This document shows positions 5,555 to 61,181 of a DNA stretch of 64,000 bases, piece by piece (the stretch's first letter is position 1; every line of letters starts with the position of its first letter). Source of the DNA: a virus. The stretch is taken from the IMG/VR virus record IMGVR_UViG_3300048583_000100, positions 33,428 through 97,427 of that record; one strand, written 5' to 3'. A model generated the notes under the pieces. It ran no database searches and was not told the DNA's origin. It worked only from the letters and a program-made list of their open reading frames with translations. Position numbers and translations under genes: made by a program.

Positions 5555-5761
5555 TCAGATTTTGATCAGGTTACTCTGCCTGACGGCGTAAGTTTTGTTC
5601 TCGTCAGAGCACAGCATGACGAGAATCTTACCGCCTCTGGTCCTCTTGATTATCTGGCACTCCGCGCCGATGAATGGACGAGAGTCGGCGTCAAAGTACA
5701 AATCGCCGCGGCTGTCGACAGTCACCCGGTCACCGGGCTCGAACTCTCCCGTCCTCATCAA
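5555..5761 (-). CDS. Small SH3/KOW-like hypothetical protein
   Basis: FEPGDRVTV start; lies between the two topoisomerase genes. Confidence 0.55.
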   Translation of the reverse strand: MMRTGEFEPGDRVTVDSRGDLYFDADSRPFIGAECQIIKRTRGGKILVMLCSDENKTYAVRQSNLIKI

Positions 5762-7743
5762 GCGGCCTCAACGATGAAGTCTTCGAAGTTATCTGCCGGA
5801 GTTTCCAACCAGACCTTACGGTCATCGGCACGTTCGCCATTGAATGCGAGGTCGAGGGCATTCTTGTCATCGCCATCTTCCATCGATACATTGAACAGGT
5901 AAGTGTCGAGGTTCTGCAGGTACGGCTTGAAGTCAGGAGTCTTGGTCGTGCCGAGACCCTTGAAGTAGCGGTGATTCCAACCACGCAGCTTCTTACCGTC
6001 GCTGTTAGCCCACAGCTTGAACTCGCGCTCAGTAAAGAACTCGTGAACGATCTTGTCCTTCACAAACACCTTGACGACCGGAGTGCGGAGGATATGGATG
6101 AAGCCAAGCTGGAACAGCTCAGGCCAGAAGTGGTCGAAGAGGTTCATGAGCAGGCCGGCAATGTGTGCGCCGTCAACGTCAGCGTCAGTTGCGAAAGCAA
6201 CCTTGCCGAAACGCAGCTCCTTGAGCGACTTAACAGGCACACCAATCTGCAGGCCGATGATCGTCAGAATCTTCTGGATTTCGTTCGGCTCAGTTTTCTT
6301 GCCGTCCTTCTCGCGATCCTTCTTCTTATCGAGGCCGAGAACTCGTGCGATTTCCTTCTCGCGGACATTTAGCGGCTTGCCCTTCAGAGGGAAGGTGCCG
6401 ATAAACTGGCGATCAGTCGCAGCTGCGAAGAGACTCTTGGAAGCGGAGTCACCCTCAGCCAGGAAGAGAACGCACTTGTGGCGATCGACCTTCTCAGTTG
6501 CGTCGTTGAACTTCTCAACACGCTTCGGGTTCGCCTTGTCAACGTCCTTGTTGAGCTTACGAACATCCTTCATCTGCTCCTGGAGAGCCTTGGCTTCCGC
6601 CCAGTCCAGAATCGACTGGATGATAGACGACTTGATGATCTTGTTGATCATCTTGTCAGGCACGGCCCACGAAGTCTTGTAGTCCTTGACTTCAGTGATG
6701 AGGTCTTCCTTGGTCTGCGAGGAGTAGCGAGGGTTGACGATCTGTGCGTCAATGAAGAGCGTCATGTGCTGACGCAGCTCCGACGGCTTGATCTCGACCT
6801 TGTGCTTCTTCTTGATGTGGGCGCGAACAGCTTCCCAAATCTGCATGCCTGCATAGAGGATATGCGTGCCACCGGTCTTCGTGTGGGTACCGTTGACGAA
6901 GGAGATGTGCTGGAAGCCGTCTTCGCTGTGAGCGATACCGACCTTCCAGTGTTCCGTCTCGTCATAGGCGTAGTCACCTTCACCAACGAACATCTCGATG
7001 TAGTCCTTGAACGAACGCGTCATCACGCGAACTCCGTTGAAGTAGACCTTGAGGTGCGTGTTGACGGCAGCTACCTGATAGACACGCGCGAGCAGCATCG
7101 CCATGTTGTCATCGTCGATGCCCTTCAGGCCAAGCTTCTCGAAGTCTGGGTAGTACGTGATTCGAGTGTAGCCCTTCGCGCCTTCTGCCGGAGTAACCTT
7201 GGCAGGCTTGCGGTCTTGCGAATGATCTTCGAAGACCATCTTGAACTTGTTCTTCGTGTCGCACGTCTCGATGACGAACTTGTGCGAGAAGATGTTGGTC
7301 AGAGCTGCACCTTCACCGTTCTGGCCAGTGAGCATTGCCTGATCATCGTCGTCGAAGTTTGAGCCAGCGCGGAGCTCGAAGATCATCTCCGGAATCCACT
7401 GATTGTATTCCTTGTGCTTGATGACCGGAATACCGCCGTTGTCGAAGACGCTGATTTCACCCTTCGCCTGGTCGATCTCAACACGAATGGTATCGAGGCC
7501 CTTACCTTCAGGACGCTTCGAATGGTCAGACGAGTTGGAGATGACTTCGTCGAACAGCTTGAGGAAGCCGGGGTTGTACGTAATTGGACGGCGGACCATC
7601 TTGACGTCAGTCGCAGACTTCACGTCAGGGATAAACTCGTCAGAGGTGTGAGGAGTAATGGAGCCAATGTATCGGCCTGGACGAAGGAGGACGTGCTCGA
7701 CCTCGTTAAGCTTCTTGTATTTCTGTTCGATCGACTTTGACAT
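5758..7743 (-). CDS. Type II DNA topoisomerase, ATPase/TOPRIM subunit (gp39+gp60-like, single ORF)
   Basis: EHVLLRPGRYIGS, EVISNSSD, DNGGIP, GQNGEGA, AEGDSA, PLKGKPLN, TDADVDGAHI, YFKGLGT. Confidence 0.96.
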   Translation of the reverse strand: MSKSIEQKYKKLNEVEHVLLRPGRYIGSITPHTSDEFIPDVKSATDVKMVRRPITYNPGFLKLFDEVISNSSDHSKRPEGKGLDTIRVEIDQAKGEISVFDNGGIPVIKHKEYNQWIPEMIFELRAGSNFDDDDQAMLTGQNGEGAALTNIFSHKFVIETCDTKNKFKMVFEDHSQDRKPAKVTPAEGAKGYTRITYYPDFEKLGLKGIDDDNMAMLLARVYQVAAVNTHLKVYFNGVRVMTRSFKDYIEMFVGEGDYAYDETEHWKVGIAHSEDGFQHISFVNGTHTKTGGTHILYAGMQIWEAVRAHIKKKHKVEIKPSELRQHMTLFIDAQIVNPRYSSQTKEDLITEVKDYKTSWAVPDKMINKIIKSSIIQSILDWAEAKALQEQMKDVRKLNKDVDKANPKRVEKFNDATEKVDRHKCVLFLAEGDSASKSLFAAATDRQFIGTFPLKGKPLNVREKEIARVLGLDKKKDREKDGKKTEPNEIQKILTIIGLQIGVPVKSLKELRFGKVAFATDADVDGAHIAGLLMNLFDHFWPELFQLGFIHILRTPVVKVFVKDKIVHEFFTEREFKLWANSDGKKLRGWNHRYFKGLGTTKTPDFKPYLQNLDTYLFNVSMEDGDDKNALDLAFNGERADDRKVWLETPADNFEDFIVEAA

Positions 7744-46413: not shown

Positions 46414-49400
46414 ATGGATTTTCCTGCCAGCCCGTCCATCAATGACCTACACACCATAAATGGTAAGACGTGGAAGTGGAACGGTGAGGGATGGGAATCA
46501 GTAGTAACCGACCCGCTATCCGGATATACAGCTGCCGATGTTCTTGCAAAGCTGTTGACTGTCGATGGATCGGGATCGGGTCTCGATGCTGATTTCCTTG
46601 ATGGCCAAAGTGGTGCGTACTATCTCGATCTAGCAAATGCTACTGGCACTGTCACAAGTGCCATGATGCCTGCTTACACGGGAGATGTCACGTCTTCTGC
46701 GGGTGCAACGGTAAATACGATCGCGGCAAACGCGGTAACCTTCGCAAAGTTCCAGCAGATTGCAACTGCATCTTTCATTGGTAGAGATACTGCGGGCACT
46801 GGAAATGCTGAAGTGCTTTCGGTTGCAGCAGCCAAGACGCTGCTGAATCTAACGGGTACCAATTCTGGTGATCAAACGATTACTCTGACAGGTAACGTGA
46901 CGGGCTCTGGTACGGGTTCATTTGCTACAACTATTGCTGCTGGCGCTGTAACGCTTGCCAACATGGCGAACGTTGCTACAGGTACGGTATTCTACCGCAA
47001 AACTGCGGCTTCTGGTGCACCTGAAGTTCAGACACTTGCCACTCTTAAAACCGATCTCGGTCTTACAGGTACCAATTCGGGCGATCAGACTATCACGCTC
47101 ACTGGGCACGTAACTGGTTCCGGTACCGGCTCATTCGCTACAACCATTGGTTCTGGCGTTATCACCAATGCGATGCAAGCCAACATGGCCGCTAATACTC
47201 TGAGCGGAAACAATACTGGCTCGGCGGCAGCTCCGGCAGATTTGACAGTCGCCCAGGTAAAGACGCTTCTAAACTACACCAAATCTGATGTTGGTCTAGC
47301 AAACGTTGAAAACACTGCTCTGTCTACTTGGGCGGGTAGCTCAAACATTACGACTGTTGGTACTGGCGTTATCACGCTTGCTAACATGGCCAACATCGCA
47401 ACGGCATCCTTCATTGGTAGAACGACAGCAGCGACTGGTGTTCCAGAAGCGCTGACCGTTACTCAGGCAACTGCGATGCTGAACGTCTTCACGTCAGCTC
47501 TCAAGGGATTGGCCCCTGCTTCTGGTGGCGGTACAACAAACTTCCTACGTGCTGATGGTACGTGGGCCGCTCCACCAGCGAGCGGCACCGTAACTTCTGT
47601 GTCCGTGACAACTGCTGCTGGCGTATCTGGTTCTGTTGCCACTGCGACAACTACACCCGCAATCACCATCACGCTGGGCGCGATTACGCCAACGTCTGTG
47701 GCTGCATCCGGTACGGTGACAGGATCAAACCTTAGTGGAACGCATACGGGCACGAGCTCCGGTACCAACACCGGCGACCAAACGATTACTCTAACGGGTG
47801 ATGTCACTGGCACTGGCACTGGGTCATTTGCTGCTACGATAGCTGCGGCATCCGTCACGCTTGCTAAGATGGCCAACATCGCAACAAACAGTTTGATCGG
47901 ACGATCAACTGCACTGTCCGGTGTTCCTGAAGTAATCACTGTTGGATCAGGACTAACTCTTTCTGCTGGCGTACTTTCGGCGAGCGGTGGAACTGGTACG
48001 GTCACCACAGTGTCTGTCACAACTGCTAACGGTGTATCCGGTTCAGTAGCTACAGCCACAACAACGCCAGCAATTACGATTACCCTTGGCGCGATTACGC
48101 CTACTTCTGTCGCTGCTTCGGGAACCGTAACTGGTTCAAACTTGAGCGGTACGAATACTGGCGATCAGACGACGATTACGGGTAATGCCGGATCCGCTAC
48201 TGTCCTACAGACAGGCAGAACGATCGCAATCTCTGGTGCAGTAACGGGTACAGCAACATCGTTCAATGGTTCCGCCAACATTACGATTCCTATTACGGCG
48301 CTGGACGTCGGCTCTGCTACTGCGGGTACACTTGCAGTTGCTCGTGGCGGTACCGGCATTGCATCGTATACCGTAGGCAACTACATCTATGCGTCGGGTA
48401 CAACCACACTAGCCCAGAGAACTCCAGCTCAGGTACGTTCAGACATCGGCGCAGGCACTGGCAACGGAACAGTTACGTCTGTCTCTGTCACCACCGCCAA
48501 TGGTGTATCTGGTTCAGTCGCCACGTCGACAACTACTCCCGCCATTACGATTACTCTAGGCGCAATTACACCTACTAGCATAGTTGCCTCGGGCGCTATA
48601 ACTGCTGGCGATGCAATTATGTCTAAGGGTAGCAATGCGGGTCTGTTCTTTGAAAATCGCGCAAACGCTACACAGACGGCCGGCTGGTACAGGAACGGCG
48701 CCGAAGTAATACTGAACTATTCAGCGATCGGCGATGTTGCAACAATTAGCTCTGCCGGCAATGCGGGCTTTAACGGAAGCATTATTGCTGGCGGCAGCAT
48801 TACATGTGCGTCGGGTAACATCACGACCCCACAGAACTTTATATCAAGCACGGCGAACATTGTATTGGCGACGACGGGTGCTGGCGGGGTTTATCTAAGA
48901 CCATCCGGTGCAGGATCTACTACTGGGCAGCTTGTTATCGGCTCTACGGGAGATGTAAGCATTTCAGGAGGCGTGACAGCTACAGGCTCATATTTTGCAT
49001 CTGCGGGTTCATTGGCTATTTTGGGAACTACTGGCGCCGGTACGGTATCCCTCCGTCCTCAGGGCGCCGGGTCAGCTACTAACGAAGTCAGCATTTCCTC
49101 GGCTGGCGCAATGACAGTTAATAACCAGCTTCGTGTGCAGGGAACAGTACGAGCACAATCAGAAACAACCTCTCTGTCTGGTGAAGGTATTGAGATGTAC
49201 TACTCGGCAAGCCGAGGGTATGTCATTGTATATGATAGAACTACCAATGGTTGGAAAACTCTTAGACACTACGGGCTTAACGTTGAAACGTATGCATCAA
49301 ATACGCTCATCATGGATACTACGACATCCGGCATTGCAGTTACTGGTGCAATTACAGCAACAGGTAACATCACGGCCTACTCTTCGGATAGCAGACTAAA

Positions 49401-49710
49401 GACGAACGTTCGAGACATCGCGAGCGCTACCAAGAAGTTGATGTCTATTGGTGGTTACGTGTTCGACTGGGATAAGGAAGCTTGCTTGATCGCGGGCTTC
49501 AAACCAGATCATGACACTGAACATGGTGTGCTTGCTCAGGAAATTGAACAGGTTATGCCCGATGCAACTGCTCCAGCACCATTCAACAATGATTACCTCA
49601 CCGTTAAATACGAGAGACTGACGGCACTTCTTATTGCGGGCTTCAAGGAGCAACAGAAGGTCATTGAAGATTTGAAGTGGGAAATTGAAAAGCTTAAGGG
49701 GAACTTCTAA
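46414..49710 (+). CDS. Long tail fibre with C-terminal intramolecular chaperone (peptidase S74-like)
   Basis: GTN(S/T)GDQTITL and TVTSVSVTTANGVSGSVAT repeats; AYSSDSRLKTNV, GVLAQEIE, terminal coiled coil. Confidence 0.9.
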   Translation: MDFPASPSINDLHTINGKTWKWNGEGWESVVTDPLSGYTAADVLAKLLTVDGSGSGLDADFLDGQSGAYYLDLANATGTVTSAMMPAYTGDVTSSAGATVNTIAANAVTFAKFQQIATASFIGRDTAGTGNAEVLSVAAAKTLLNLTGTNSGDQTITLTGNVTGSGTGSFATTIAAGAVTLANMANVATGTVFYRKTAASGAPEVQTLATLKTDLGLTGTNSGDQTITLTGHVTGSGTGSFATTIGSGVITNAMQANMAANTLSGNNTGSAAAPADLTVAQVKTLLNYTKSDVGLANVENTALSTWAGSSNITTVGTGVITLANMANIATASFIGRTTAATGVPEALTVTQATAMLNVFTSALKGLAPASGGGTTNFLRADGTWAAPPASGTVTSVSVTTAAGVSGSVATATTTPAITITLGAITPTSVAASGTVTGSNLSGTHTGTSSGTNTGDQTITLTGDVTGTGTGSFAATIAAASVTLAKMANIATNSLIGRSTALSGVPEVITVGSGLTLSAGVLSASGGTGTVTTVSVTTANGVSGSVATATTTPAITITLGAITPTSVAASGTVTGSNLSGTNTGDQTTITGNAGSATVLQTGRTIAISGAVTGTATSFNGSANITIPITALDVGSATAGTLAVARGGTGIASYTVGNYIYASGTTTLAQRTPAQVRSDIGAGTGNGTVTSVSVTTANGVSGSVATSTTTPAITITLGAITPTSIVASGAITAGDAIMSKGSNAGLFFENRANATQTAGWYRNGAEVILNYSAIGDVATISSAGNAGFNGSIIAGGSITCASGNITTPQNFISSTANIVLATTGAGGVYLRPSGAGSTTGQLVIGSTGDVSISGGVTATGSYFASAGSLAILGTTGAGTVSLRPQGAGSATNEVSISSAGAMTVNNQLRVQGTVRAQSETTSLSGEGIEMYYSASRGYVIVYDRTTNGWKTLRHYGLNVETYASNTLIMDTTTSGIAVTGAITATGNITAYSSDSRLKTNVRDIASATKKLMSIGGYVFDWDKEACLIAGFKPDHDTEHGVLAQEIEQVMPDATAPAPFNNDYLTVKYERLTALLIAGFKEQQKVIEDLKWEIEKLKGNF

Positions 49711-56414: not shown

Positions 56415-56993
56415 TTATGAAGCGTCAACCTGACTTTCGTCAAGCTTGTAGATGATGCCAGGGCCAAGTACGAAACTGTTCTGCGGGAGAATCAGCTTCT
56501 TTGTCGGGTCACCATCGAGGTTTACGACACCATCGAAAACGAATTTGCGGATATTGCCGTCAATCCACTTGACCATAACCCAGTCGTAGATTGGGAAATC
56601 CTTGTACTTGGAATTGCTCTTCTCCGCCTTCTCTACAATGTCAATCGAGAATTCGCGAGTGCCTGCAATCTTGCCTGGCTTTCCAGGTAGATCGACATTG
56701 CCATTCTTGGAAGCTTCTTCCAGATCAACGGCGTGTTGAAGGTCTTTGACGTACTCGTCAATGTTGTTGCCGTAGATTTTGATTTGCTGGTACTGCGCGT
56801 AGATGAGCAGAATGATTCTGCCGCCAATGAATGAAGTGATGAAGCTCACACTCCCCGAAAGAAGTGTGAGCTCACCGAACCAAAACAGAACAAGCGGGAC
56901 GAAGATGATGTTAGCTATCCAGGGCATCTTCCTCGCCAACTTTCGCTGGCGAGTTAGAGCGAGGGTCATCTTTTCAGACAGACCCGCCGTCAC
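56415..56993 (-). CDS. Predicted membrane protein
   Basis: Two N-terminal hydrophobic segments. Confidence 0.65.
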   Translation of the reverse strand: MTAGLSEKMTLALTRQRKLARKMPWIANIIFVPLVLFWFGELTLLSGSVSFITSFIGGRIILLIYAQYQQIKIYGNNIDEYVKDLQHAVDLEEASKNGNVDLPGKPGKIAGTREFSIDIVEKAEKSNSKYKDFPIYDWVMVKWIDGNIRKFVFDGVVNLDGDPTKKLILPQNSFVLGPGIIYKLDESQVDAS

Positions 56994-57568
56994 GCAGCTA
57001 CTGCCTGAAGGTCTTCACGGACGCGAGACTTCTCGTCAACGAAGGCCAGCAGGAATTCCATCTGATCAGCGAGGATGTTGCGGTTCTCGAGGATGAGATG
57101 CTCTGCACGGGTAGGAATGTAAGGCAGGTAATGCAGCTGCATGCCAGCTTCCTCAGGCGTACGTGCGTCCTTCTTCTGGTTGCACTTGGCGCAAGCCGTA
57201 ACAACGTTCATCCAGATGTCCTTACCACCACGCGAACGTGGGATAACGTGGTCGCGCGTCAGCTTCGAGTCGCCGTACGTGCTTACGCAGTAGGCGCACA
57301 GATGACGGTCACGACGGAACAGCTGACGGTTGCTGAGCGAAGGCGCGCGGAACTTACGCTTGCCTGCCTCGCCCTTGACTGCGATGATTGAAGAAGTGAT
57401 GATGCGGGAACGATCGCCTGTGAACCGATTGTCACCACCCAAAATCACGCGGTCAGTCTTGCCCACTTCCCAAGAGACAAGTCCCTTAGCGTGGTAGCAA
57501 GCAGCTTCCTGCCAAGTGATCCACTTGGAAGGCTGGCCCTGAGAGTCGAGTTGTAGGATGAGTGCCAT
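56990..57568 (-). CDS. HNH endonuclease (McrA-like)
   Basis: LFRRDRHLCAYC, TRDHVIPRSRGG, NVVTACAKCNQKK. Confidence 0.92.
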   Translation of the reverse strand: MALILQLDSQGQPSKWITWQEAACYHAKGLVSWEVGKTDRVILGGDNRFTGDRSRIITSSIIAVKGEAGKRKFRAPSLSNRQLFRRDRHLCAYCVSTYGDSKLTRDHVIPRSRGGKDIWMNVVTACAKCNQKKDARTPEEAGMQLHYLPYIPTRAEHLILENRNILADQMEFLLAFVDEKSRVREDLQAVAA

Positions 57569-58674: not shown

Positions 58675-58750
<76 letters not shown>

Positions 58751-58759
58751 ACATTGTGT

Positions 58760-59215
58760 TTATTTATCACCAGCAAGAAGCTTGGCAGCCTTCCTGACGA
58801 TTGAAGCCTGTGACTTTCTGCCCTGAGCAATGAACTGCTTCTCGGTTAGCCAGTGAGTCGACTTGGTTTCGTAGTGGGGTTTCTTGAAGTCGTCTTTGTC
58901 CTTGACCTCGCCCATGTAAATCGTCATCTTGTAAGACTCTTTCTTACCACGGACCTTGCTAGAGAAGACTACTTGAATGGTTTCCTTGATGAGATTGCCA
59001 CGCTTAAGACCGAGTTCCTCTCGACCTTCACGAAGCGCAGCTTCATATACGCCCTCACCAGTGTCAATTCCGCCCTTAGCTAGCTGGGGTTCTGCACCAC
59101 CATACTGCGCTTTAGAAGGCGTCATGAAGTAAAAGAGCGGCTCACCATTCTCATAGACATAGGGGATGAATCCGGCACGCTCTCTCACGTCAGGTAGAAT
59201 CTCGTCTAGCTTCAT
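58760..59215 (-). CDS. Nudix hydrolase (MKLDEIL N-terminus)
   Basis: KGGIDTGEGVYEAALREGREELGL Nudix box. Confidence 0.92.
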   Translation of the reverse strand: MKLDEILPDVRERAGFIPYVYENGEPLFYFMTPSKAQYGGAEPQLAKGGIDTGEGVYEAALREGREELGLKRGNLIKETIQVVFSSKVRGKKESYKMTIYMGEVKDKDDFKKPHYETKSTHWLTEKQFIAQGRKSQASIVRKAAKLLAGDK

Positions 59216-59719: not shown

Positions 59720-60391
59720 TTACCACATTAGATCGAAGAACCCGCCGAGAACTTTGTCACACTTTACAGTGCAGCCGCTCGCATGATCCTTTACGACATT
59801 GTCTTGGAAGCGGTACGTTCTCATCTTGTCACCTCTCATACCTGAGCCGACCTGCTGCTTACGCGTAGAAGACAGCTCTGCTCCAGCGATCATAGACTGT
59901 CGACGGTTGACTCTTTCGAGGATTGCTGTCTTAGCTTCGTCAAGGGAATTCTCTCGACTACGACATGATGCTGTGGCTGTGGTTGAGGTCGGGATATGGA
60001 TGATGCGACAGGAGTTCTGGGTCTTGTTACGATGCTGCCCACCAGGTCCAGTTCCGGAGTACCACTCTATGCGGAAGTCGCGATCGTTAAATTCGATTCG
60101 CTTTACTTCCTTTGGGTCTATGATTGCGACAGTGACGGTAGACGAATGAACACGTCCACGTTTTTCATTCGGTGGGATTCGCTGAACGCGATGGCCACCG
60201 GACTCTTTCTGAAGCTCTGATAGATCGTCGCCCGTTACTTCAATTGAAAGTTCACCGGGCCTATCGTCTATCAGGCGGTGAGTTCAACCGAAGCGAACGA
60301 ACATTTTGGTGTAAGCCTTCGCCAGATCACGTGCGAACAGCTTAGCATCTTCTCCGCCTTCGGCGGCTCTTAGTTCGATAATGCGCTTCAT
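59720..60391 (-). CDS. Class I peptide chain release factor homologue lacking domain 1, with in-frame TGA at codon 36 (not in the ORF track)
   Basis: Manual translation: MKRIIELRAAEGGEDAKLFARDLAKAYTKMFVRFG*THRL...KESGGHRVQRIPPNEKRGRVHSSTVTVA...SGTGPGGQHRNKT...GSGMRGDKMRTYRF...MW; SD AAGGAG; 224 codons, same frame on both sides of the TGA. Confidence 0.9.
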
Positions 60392-60402
60392 TGAATTACT
60401 CC

Positions 60403-60606
60403 TTAGATTGGATCACACTCTCCGCGTTCGATCATTATTGCTCGAACTGCGTCATTTACTTCTTGCTTCTCTTCTTCGCTAAGCTCCCACCAAAGGGTGT
60501 CTAGCTTATCTAGAATTTCATCTTCTACGCTATCGTCGGCATTGCCATCTCGCGCAGCCAGAAGATACCGAGTTTCTTCCATGTACTTTTCGACTTTCGT
60601 TGTCAT
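60403..60606 (-). CDS. Small acidic hypothetical protein
   Basis: Coupled to def. Confidence 0.6.
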   Translation of the reverse strand: MTTKVEKYMEETRYLLAARDGNADDSVEDEILDKLDTLWWELSEEEKQEVNDAVRAIMIERGECDPI

Positions 60607-61091
60607 GCTACATTCCTTTCTTCTGGGTCGGCATACTTATCGAAGGTGATGCCATTGAGATGGTCGAGTTCGTGCTGGAAGCAAATAGCGTCAATGCCAT
60701 CCAGATCAAGAGTGAACTCCTCAAAGTTCTCGTCGACGGCCTGGACTTGAATGCTGTTTGGACGAGCAACAGTCATTGCGACACCAGGAAAACTGAGACA
60801 CCCTTCCTTGAAGGGTTCGCGCTTTCGACTGACGGATAGAATTTCTGGATTGATGAACACTCTACGACCAACACTCTTGGGGTATCCAGTTTTGCTGGTG
60901 TCCATCACGAAGATGCGGGCGGCACAGTCCACCTGAATAGCAGCAAGCCCGATCGCCCCGTGATAGTACATGGTTTCAAACATGTCAGGTACGAAATGAT
61001 TTATCAGGAAGTTGCCAGCTTCGTCGTCGCGTACAGCAATGCTATGACAGTGAAGTCTCAGGTCTGGACTTTTGAGAAGCGGCAGAATCAT
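60603..61091 (-). CDS. def: Peptide deformylase
   Basis: AIGLAAIQV, EGCLS, QHELDHLNG. Confidence 0.96.
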   Translation of the reverse strand: MILPLLKSPDLRLHCHSIAVRDDEAGNFLINHFVPDMFETMYYHGAIGLAAIQVDCAARIFVMDTSKTGYPKSVGRRVFINPEILSVSRKREPFKEGCLSFPGVAMTVARPNSIQVQAVDENFEEFTLDLDGIDAICFQHELDHLNGITFDKYADPEERNVA

Positions 61092-61107: not shown

Positions 61108-61181
61108 TGGTCTCGCTGGTGGGATTCGAACCCTACAAACTCAACCTTCGGAGGGTCGAGACCGATCCATCGGCAGCGAGA
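61108..61181 (-). tRNA. Atypical tRNA-Arg(CCG)
   Basis: Acceptor CTCGCTG/CAGCGAG + A-CCA; anticodon loop CTCCGAA; T-loop TTCGAAT; D-arm reduced. Confidence 0.65.

Follow-up and report, generated by a model that had tools for sequence, protein, structure and literature searches.

The window, a stretch of 64,000 nucleotides taken from a viral contig, encodes a shortened RF1-type release factor that is likely made through programmed in-frame readthrough of a UGA at codon 36, although neither expression nor protein data are available. The gene (59720..60391, minus strand) encodes a 223-residue factor comprising domains 2-4 and lacking domain 1, and its frame, which runs from 60391 down to 59720, contains 224 codons counting the terminator and one internal TGA. 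The ATG start codon (60391) is preceded, at a distance of 7 nt, by a Shine-Dalgarno sequence, AAGGAG (60399..60404, minus strand; read from the sequence), which overlaps the TAA stop of an upstream 67-codon ORF. Codons 1-35 (60287..60391), i.e., those translated ahead of the stop, encode the conserved EGGED tip of the codon-reading domain, with which class I factors read the first base of the stop codon. The TGA follows as codon 36 (60284..60286) in the context TTC GGT TGA ACT, having a GGT glycine codon before it and an A after it. All the catalytic and decoding motifs are carried by codons 37-223 (59723..60283), among them the recognition tripeptide PPN (residues 73-75; 60167..60175), located at the place of the PxT of RF1, and the GGQ catalytic motif (residues 117-119; 60035..60043). 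The true terminator is a TAA (59720-59722), on the minus strand like all the preceding features. The motifs IELRAAEGG, ESGGHRVQRIP, GRVHSS, GPGGQHRNKT, and RTYRF lie in one frame across the TGA. The gene anatomy is shown; by this anatomy, a single protein is possible only if codon 36 is decoded.

The read-through protein matches the Pfam domains PCRF (E 2e-21) and RF-1 (E 5e-16), covering the C-terminal half of the former and the whole of the latter, and it meets the definition of an RF1-type class I factor, i.e., PCRF and RF-1 domains with GGQ. Its NCBIfam scores are 178 bits for RF1, 96 bits for RF2, and 44 bits for PrfH. The RF1 score falls below the cut-off of that model (400 bits), and the alignment extends over positions 107-332 of 347. 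The protein is not equivalent to a full-length prfA product carrying the N-terminal domain 1; the ORF begins at the first strand of domain 2. The best sequence matches are solved RF1 chains (141 bits versus 75 for RF2), and the structure closest to the AlphaFold model (mean pLDDT 80) is ribosome-bound RF1 (TM 0.65), the solved PrfH ranking only 50th by fold. Using the solved structures, the codon-36 TGA aligns with the Trp of the Thermotoga RF1 (..RKGW..), a residue of domain 2 located where a helix and a strand meet. Fold and motifs thus show that the protein is an RF1-like class I release factor without domain 1, and its activity is predicted from motifs only. The same holds for UAA/UAG release by a product that has neither domain 1 nor the contact with RF3. 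RF1 from which domain 1 has been deleted is known to retain codon-dependent release in vitro and to lose its response to RF3.

The recognition loop of the window gene reads RVQRIP-PN-E...VHSS, i.e., it has PPN and a Ser replacing Thr, and it is RF1-like rather than of the SPF type. Most relatives have PPT and VHTS (HTS), including a 93%-identical database protein (P0003). The presence of PPN instead of PPT makes the codon specificity of the window copy uncertain, and it is possible that PPN marks an altered specificity. PPN was also observed in one further homologue (L004), and the frameshift clade described below has it in several Myxococcota genes. An earlier reading of the window, made without any database search, had claimed the frame, the Shine-Dalgarno sequence, the motifs, and the TGA at codon 36, all of which held in the sequence, as well as the coincidence of the stop with a Trp of RF1, which held in the alignment with Thermotoga RF1. 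This sequence-only reading had missed that the factor lacks domain 1 and that its recognition loop is PPN and not PxT.

The conservation of the stop is strict. After removal of duplicates from viral, metagenome, and bacterial-genome collections, we obtained 141 distinct homologues, down to 43% identity, and codon 36 is TGA in all of them and never TGG, TAG, or TAA. By collection, TGA was found at this codon in 79/79 IMG/VR loci with a recognisable gene, in 81/81 assessable metagenome loci, and in all seven copies from bacterial assemblies (Thalassospira, Jiella, Gemmobacter, Sphingomonas, Sphingobium, a Rhodospirillales MAG, and a Marinacidobacterium MAG). The synonymous sites of the family are saturated (pS ~0.77), and dN/dS is ~0.10 for the 35 codons ahead of the stop as well as for the 187 that follow it, which shows purifying selection on both parts. 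Because TGA persists in 141/141 sequences despite saturated synonymous sites and with such a low dN/dS, sequencing error, recent decay, and chance are excluded, and the stop is a feature under selection rather than a defect of the gene. The segment that follows the TGA is kept as protein, and its indels occur in multiples of three. In the window gene the first in-frame ATG, GTG, or TTG is found 130 codons past the TGA, and thus, the C-terminal part cannot start on its own; the family median for this distance is 50 codons. The criteria for readthrough, i.e., a continuing frame, a conserved stop, and purifying selection downstream, are therefore met. In a tree of the C-terminal part, all the genes with TGA at codon 36 form one clade (support 100/99), separate from canonical RF1.

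The context of the stop carries signals as well. The codon before the TGA encodes Gly (GGN) in 138/141 genes, and as the base after it A occurs 95 times, C 26 times, G 20 times, and T never. Each of the 26 Leu codons found at the +1 position is a CTN codon, while TTR (TTA, TTG) makes up 41% of the Leu codons of the family. The genes themselves terminate with TAA in 131 of the 141 cases (93%). In E. coli, a U after the stop codon gives the strongest termination, and an A after UGA favours its reading by tRNA-Trp. In the window gene, a long stem-loop (60225..60300, minus strand; -31.1 kcal/mol) contains GGU-UGA-A in its 5' arm, and its inner stem begins 6 nt past the U of the UGA. No other 78-nt stretch of the gene is as stable, and its z is -4.1 against dinucleotide shuffles and -3.9 against synonymous-codon shuffles. 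Over 70 distinct relatives the structure has a mean z of -1.75, with 24 of them below -2, and the shapes differ; RNAalifold yielded no consensus structure on 69 sequences. A hand-drawn hairpin was paired in 70% of cells compared with 25-42% in slid controls, with the caveat that its drawing was based on the consensus. No such structure follows the UGA in the subclade whose release-factor gene neighbours a tmRNA gene. The structure is thus likely to be a local stimulator in the window gene and represents a tendency of the family rather than a defining element, its stimulating role being inferred.

The contig from which the window derives (97,427 bp, 51% G+C) is a fragment of a T4-like phage, as indicated by markers such as the T4-type topoisomerase II large subunit (5758-7743, minus strand), the long tail fibre (46414-49710, plus strand), and baseplate genes. 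Its best cultured relatives are the Xanthomonas phages X1 and BUDD, with a topoisomerase protein identity of 58%. In a crude set of 143 ORFs of the contig, TGA is the stop codon of 67, TAA of 61, and TAG of 15. A scan for in-frame TGA codons with coding signal on both sides, on the true coding strand, returned the release-factor gene only. The anticodon TCA occurs in none of the seven tRNA genes on the contig, a 97 kb fragment that ends inside a tRNA array, and is also absent among the 1,092 tRNA and tmRNA genes that flank 160 loci of the family. Since the contig is fragmentary and ends inside the array, the phage could still have a suppressor tRNA in another part of its genome. A genome-wide reassignment of TGA, as in code 4, was considered and rejected on the grounds that TGA is the commonest stop, that there is no second in-frame TGA, and that no TCA tRNA was found. 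We conclude that the recoding is specific to the release-factor gene in a genome that uses the standard code.

These results bear on several claims of the sequence-only reading. It had stated that the genome as a whole is not recoded, which held, and that the A following the UGA creates a leaky context, which also held and extends to the whole family in that T never occupies this position. Its preference for readthrough over frameshifting is strongly supported by the comparative data, i.e., the frame is unchanged, a Trp is expected, and restart is impossible. The situation that it named as refuting, in which the homologues would all have TGG and the TGA would be unique to this assembly, is contradicted (TGG in 0/141). 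The absence of a tRNA with the anticodon TCA, on which it had left the matter undecided, holds for the 97 kb and for the flanks of the relatives, the full genome not being covered.

The release-factor gene belongs to a block of genes related to translation and transcribed from one strand. The block contains, in this order, tRNAs (Cys, Asp, Thr, Val, Arg, Arg), a peptide deformylase (60603..61091, minus strand; two genes upstream), the 67-codon ORF, and the release factor, and it continues with a 148-codon ORF, a NUDIX hydrolase, and a tRNA-Thr. The NUDIX hydrolase and an HNH endonuclease lie among the tRNA genes (58760-59215 and 56990-57568, in that order; minus strand). The nearest upstream member of the phage tRNA array is tRNA-Arg(CCG) (61108..61180, minus strand), and the upstream array (Arg, Val, Thr, Asp, Cys) reaches the end of the window. 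As tRNA-Thr(GGT) (58675..58750, minus strand) is found downstream, the release-factor gene is located inside the tRNA array. This arrangement is common among the relatives, where the gene is embedded in tRNA arrays in 117/160 loci. It adjoins tRNA-Trp(CCA) in 25/160 loci, often placed immediately upstream (L002, L006, L015, L029, and L133, among others), and a phage tmRNA gene in 27/160. Among 21 distinct phage tRNA-Trp genes, many show T-A pairing at positions 11:24 of the D-stem, which is the change of the Hirsh UGA suppressor, but no conclusion is possible without a host baseline. In a jumbo-phage subclade (L007, L013, L017, L020, L027, L030, L031, and L033), the tmRNA gene is directly 3' of the release-factor gene, and tRNAs with the anticodon CTA (amber) are found a few kb away, together with one with TTA (ochre) in L030. 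The copy of Gemmobacter caeni lies in an array of 12 tRNAs with Sir2-family and Thg1-family genes. The presence of RF-1 genes in tRNA arrays had been noted earlier, with no mention of the stop (PMC5966550).

We propose the following mechanism. The strong ribosome-binding site would load ribosomes that translate 35 codons and then meet GGU-UGA-A. Most of them would be terminated at the UGA by the host RF2, freeing a 35-residue peptide, and a fraction would decode the UGA by a near-cognate tRNA, most likely tRNA-Trp (CCA), either from the host or from the phage. The insertion of Trp would restore the ordinary RF1 residue, and translation would proceed to the TAA. The weak context, in which the next base is never U and mostly A, and the stable local RNA structure likely raise the fraction of readthrough. 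The contest between termination and readthrough at the UGA would therefore set the yield of full-length protein. The factor would be low in amount and would rise under limiting or slow RF2 or with abundant tRNA-Trp. The identity of the inserted residue, the stimulation by RNA structure, and any sensing role are all inferred, and there are no data on the efficiency of readthrough. The gate cannot be a direct self-feedback as in prfB, because RF1-type motifs are not expected to read UGA, and why UGA-termination capacity should control an RF1-type factor is unexplained.

The best available argument concerning what the device responds to comes from a second group of short RF1-like genes without domain 1, characterised by the motif GGHRWQRVPPTE and found in Myxococcota, Thiobacillus denitrificans, a Hydrogenophilales MAG, a Chloroflexota MAG, and the huge phage LR745208. 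In this sister clade, the first ~45 codons are in one frame and the remainder is in the +1 frame. The junction consists of an SD-like GGGGG or GGAGG, a short spacer, and CTT TGA followed by C or G, and it is located ~16-30 codons ahead of the GGHRWQR motif (cassette loci L133 (3960-4260), L096, L152, L140, L136, L160, and L241, the last being LR745208). The cassette is of the prfB type, in which frameshifting is established to compete with RF2 (PMC12421855). In Thiobacillus denitrificans DSM 12475, the gene is found in a 30-tRNA array, directly after tRNA-Trp. The window gene itself does not meet the description of a prfB-type +1 frameshift, as both parts of TTC GGT TGA ACT are read in the same frame. 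Homologous short factors therefore use differing recoding devices, all of them acting on a UGA within the first 50 codons, which argues that the point of the device is the capacity for UGA termination. The sequence-only reading had gone further and proposed a sensor or feedback switch on RF2, i.e., on UGA-termination capacity; this is not shown and has only the indirect support that the cassette of the sister clade lends to a UGA/RF2-gated logic, so that the sensor role stays an inference. Some AT-rich huge phages (L242, L243, and L244; LR756504, LR745206, and LR756502) have one or two in-frame TGAs at other codons, and so does a Wolfebacteria bin (L095), with examples such as ..KPIE(TGA)RDG.. 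and ..VSI(TGA)LTG... In the tree, the AT-rich huge-phage copies nest within the sister clade, and a genome-wide use of TGA as a sense codon has not been established there.

The most serious rival to programmed and responsive readthrough is a constitutive attenuation, in which a fixed, low readthrough keeps a potentially toxic factor scarce and nothing is sensed. Its anatomy would be identical to that of our preferred explanation, and the placing of an early stop behind a strong Shine-Dalgarno sequence agrees with a design of high initiation and low yield. However, a weak ribosome-binding site would be a simpler solution, yet the TGA is invariant in 141 genes, and the sister clade relies on the prfB cassette, whose response to RF2 is established (PMC12421855); we consider attenuation unlikely. 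A dedicated suppression, or code switch, would require that a UGA-reading phage tRNA (with anticodon UCA, or an altered tRNA-Trp) acts during infection. The incomplete contig ending inside a tRNA array leaves room for it, tRNA-Trp(CCA) is a neighbour in 25/160 loci, and TGA-recoded phages pair RF1 with a suppressor tRNA (Borges et al., bioRxiv 10.1101/2021.08.26.457843). Against it, the anticodon TCA was found in none of the 1,092 flanking tRNA and tmRNA genes, TGA is the most used stop of a genome in which no other gene has an in-frame TGA, and the RF1 gene of the recoded Jade phages is itself written in the standard code. This alternative appears very improbable.

Two further alternatives are all but ruled out. 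The insertion of selenocysteine, with the downstream hairpin as a SECIS element, could invoke the stable stem-loop that the window gene and many relatives have, starting at the UGA or directly behind it. Nevertheless, the residue in RF1 is Trp, the homologous residues are Trp, Phe, or Ala and never Cys, and the structure has no conserved shape (none by RNAalifold) and is absent from one subclade. A broken or two-piece gene could result from pseudogene formation, an assembly error, a restart of translation, or a bypass like that of gene 60 from the GGT to a later GGT. A lone nonsense codon is indeed the usual mark of a pseudogene, and the window gene has a GGT codon 10 codons downstream of the stop. 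But error and decay are already refuted by the TGA in 141 independent distinct sequences with dN/dS 0.10 on both sides, and restart by the lack of a start codon for 130 codons. A bypass is contradicted by the conservation of the post-stop segment as protein with indels in multiples of three, and by relatives such as L001 that have no matching Gly codon as landing site.

Returning to readthrough, a bolder reading, which we regard as more doubtful than probable, is that mobile translation islands (tRNA arrays, tmRNA, peptide deformylase), in phages as well as in bacteria, wire a factor without domain 1 to the capacity for UGA termination. The sister clades would have evolved two devices for this, one reading through a UGA at a Trp codon and the other shifting to the +1 frame as in prfB, and the product would be a back-up or take-over factor, switched on by failure of the host RF2 or by expression of the tRNA-Trp of the island itself. 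If true, the readthrough form would realise a design that was postulated before release-factor genes were sequenced and that has been reported as never found in bacteria.

Several known systems resemble the window gene in part. Like prfB (RF2), it is a release-factor gene cut early by a UGA in which the yield of full-length protein depends on UGA termination, but the frame stays the same and the stop is preceded by neither a CUU slippery codon nor an SD-like element, and, the factor being of the RF1 type, direct self-feedback is ruled out. In the RNA phage Q-beta, readthrough of a UGA by tRNA-Trp, which inserts Trp, extends the coat protein into the A1 protein. The likeness lies in a leaky UGA of a phage gene that is decoded in frame by normal tRNA-Trp, as proposed here. 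However, both products of Q-beta are functional, whereas the 35-residue product of the window gene has no evident function, the readthrough product is the only meaningful one, and the stop stands within a domain, in place of an ancestral Trp codon. The expression of a release factor also depends on readthrough in the case of plant eRF1 (PMC5397192) and of a factor from a giant amoeba virus, which needs frameshifting in addition (cited in PMC5009743). Those factors are omnipotent, of the eRF1 type, and form a self-feedback loop, whereas the window gene encodes a bacterial-type RF1 in a bacteriophage. The Jade phages (bioRxiv 10.1101/2021.08.26.457843) likewise have RF1 genes associated with tRNA genes, but their late genes are recoded throughout, they have suppressor tRNAs, and their RF1 is in standard code; in the window phage it is the genome that follows the standard code and only the release-factor gene that contains the TGA.

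PrfH (RF-H), which is paired with the RtcB ligase, was tried as a further candidate, as it also lacks domain 1 and is mobile, sporadic, and found in contexts of translation stress. The window protein differs in that it scores 44 bits with TIGR03072, whose cut-off is 167, PrfH ranks 50th by fold, and the decoding residues of RF1 are kept. A PrfH/RtcB rescue pair was rejected on this low score and on the lack of an adjacent RtcB, the neighbours being peptide deformylase, NUDIX hydrolase, and tRNA genes.

According to the review of Atkins et al. (2016), no RF2 gene has an early in-frame UGA past which the same frame goes on, and no RF1 counterpart was known; the sole readthrough-dependent factor that it names is the one from a giant amoeba virus (PMC5009743). 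In the literature that we searched (huge phages, recoded phages, release-factor evolution, and prfB frameshifting), the in-frame UGA of these genes is undescribed. Release-factor genes gated by recoding are already known, and what is new, as far as this literature shows, is the proposed type based on in-frame UGA readthrough in a bacterial-type RF1. While prfB is the textbook example of translational autoregulation, the window gene offers a simpler design that was reviewed as unknown for bacterial RF1 and RF2 (PMC5009743). The TGA is kept throughout a large and abundant family of phages and is also present in cultured bacteria. It bears on the question of why phages keep their own translation factors beside tRNA arrays, and the site may represent a natural, compact UGA-readthrough element of practical use.

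The cultured Alphaproteobacteria that carry the gene are tractable and provide direct test systems. Chromosomal copies with the in-frame TGA were observed in Gemmobacter caeni DSM 21823 (L087), Thalassospira xianhensis MCCC 1A02616 (L081), and Jiella sp. (L083). No near-identical DNA was found among GenBank phages, and a protein search against cultured phages gave only matches of at most 38% identity, mostly bacterial prfA on mislabelled contigs. The general protein search returned a large family of 222-225-residue proteins with Trp at the position of the stop, all on short contigs, and many proteins of 155-184 residues that start just past it; P0003, P0054, P0071, P0100, P0105, P0109, and P0119 are examples of database proteins that are either truncated or full-length with Trp. 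These two kinds of entries point to restarted gene calls and to calls made with a code in which TGA is Trp, respectively, the DNA confirming TGA. The family is thus systematically mis-annotated, since gene callers split its members, truncate them, or rescue them with the wrong genetic code. One metagenome copy (L235:440-1380) has an insertion of 20 residues directly after the TGA, and the last ~20 codons of this gene are apparently repeated downstream.
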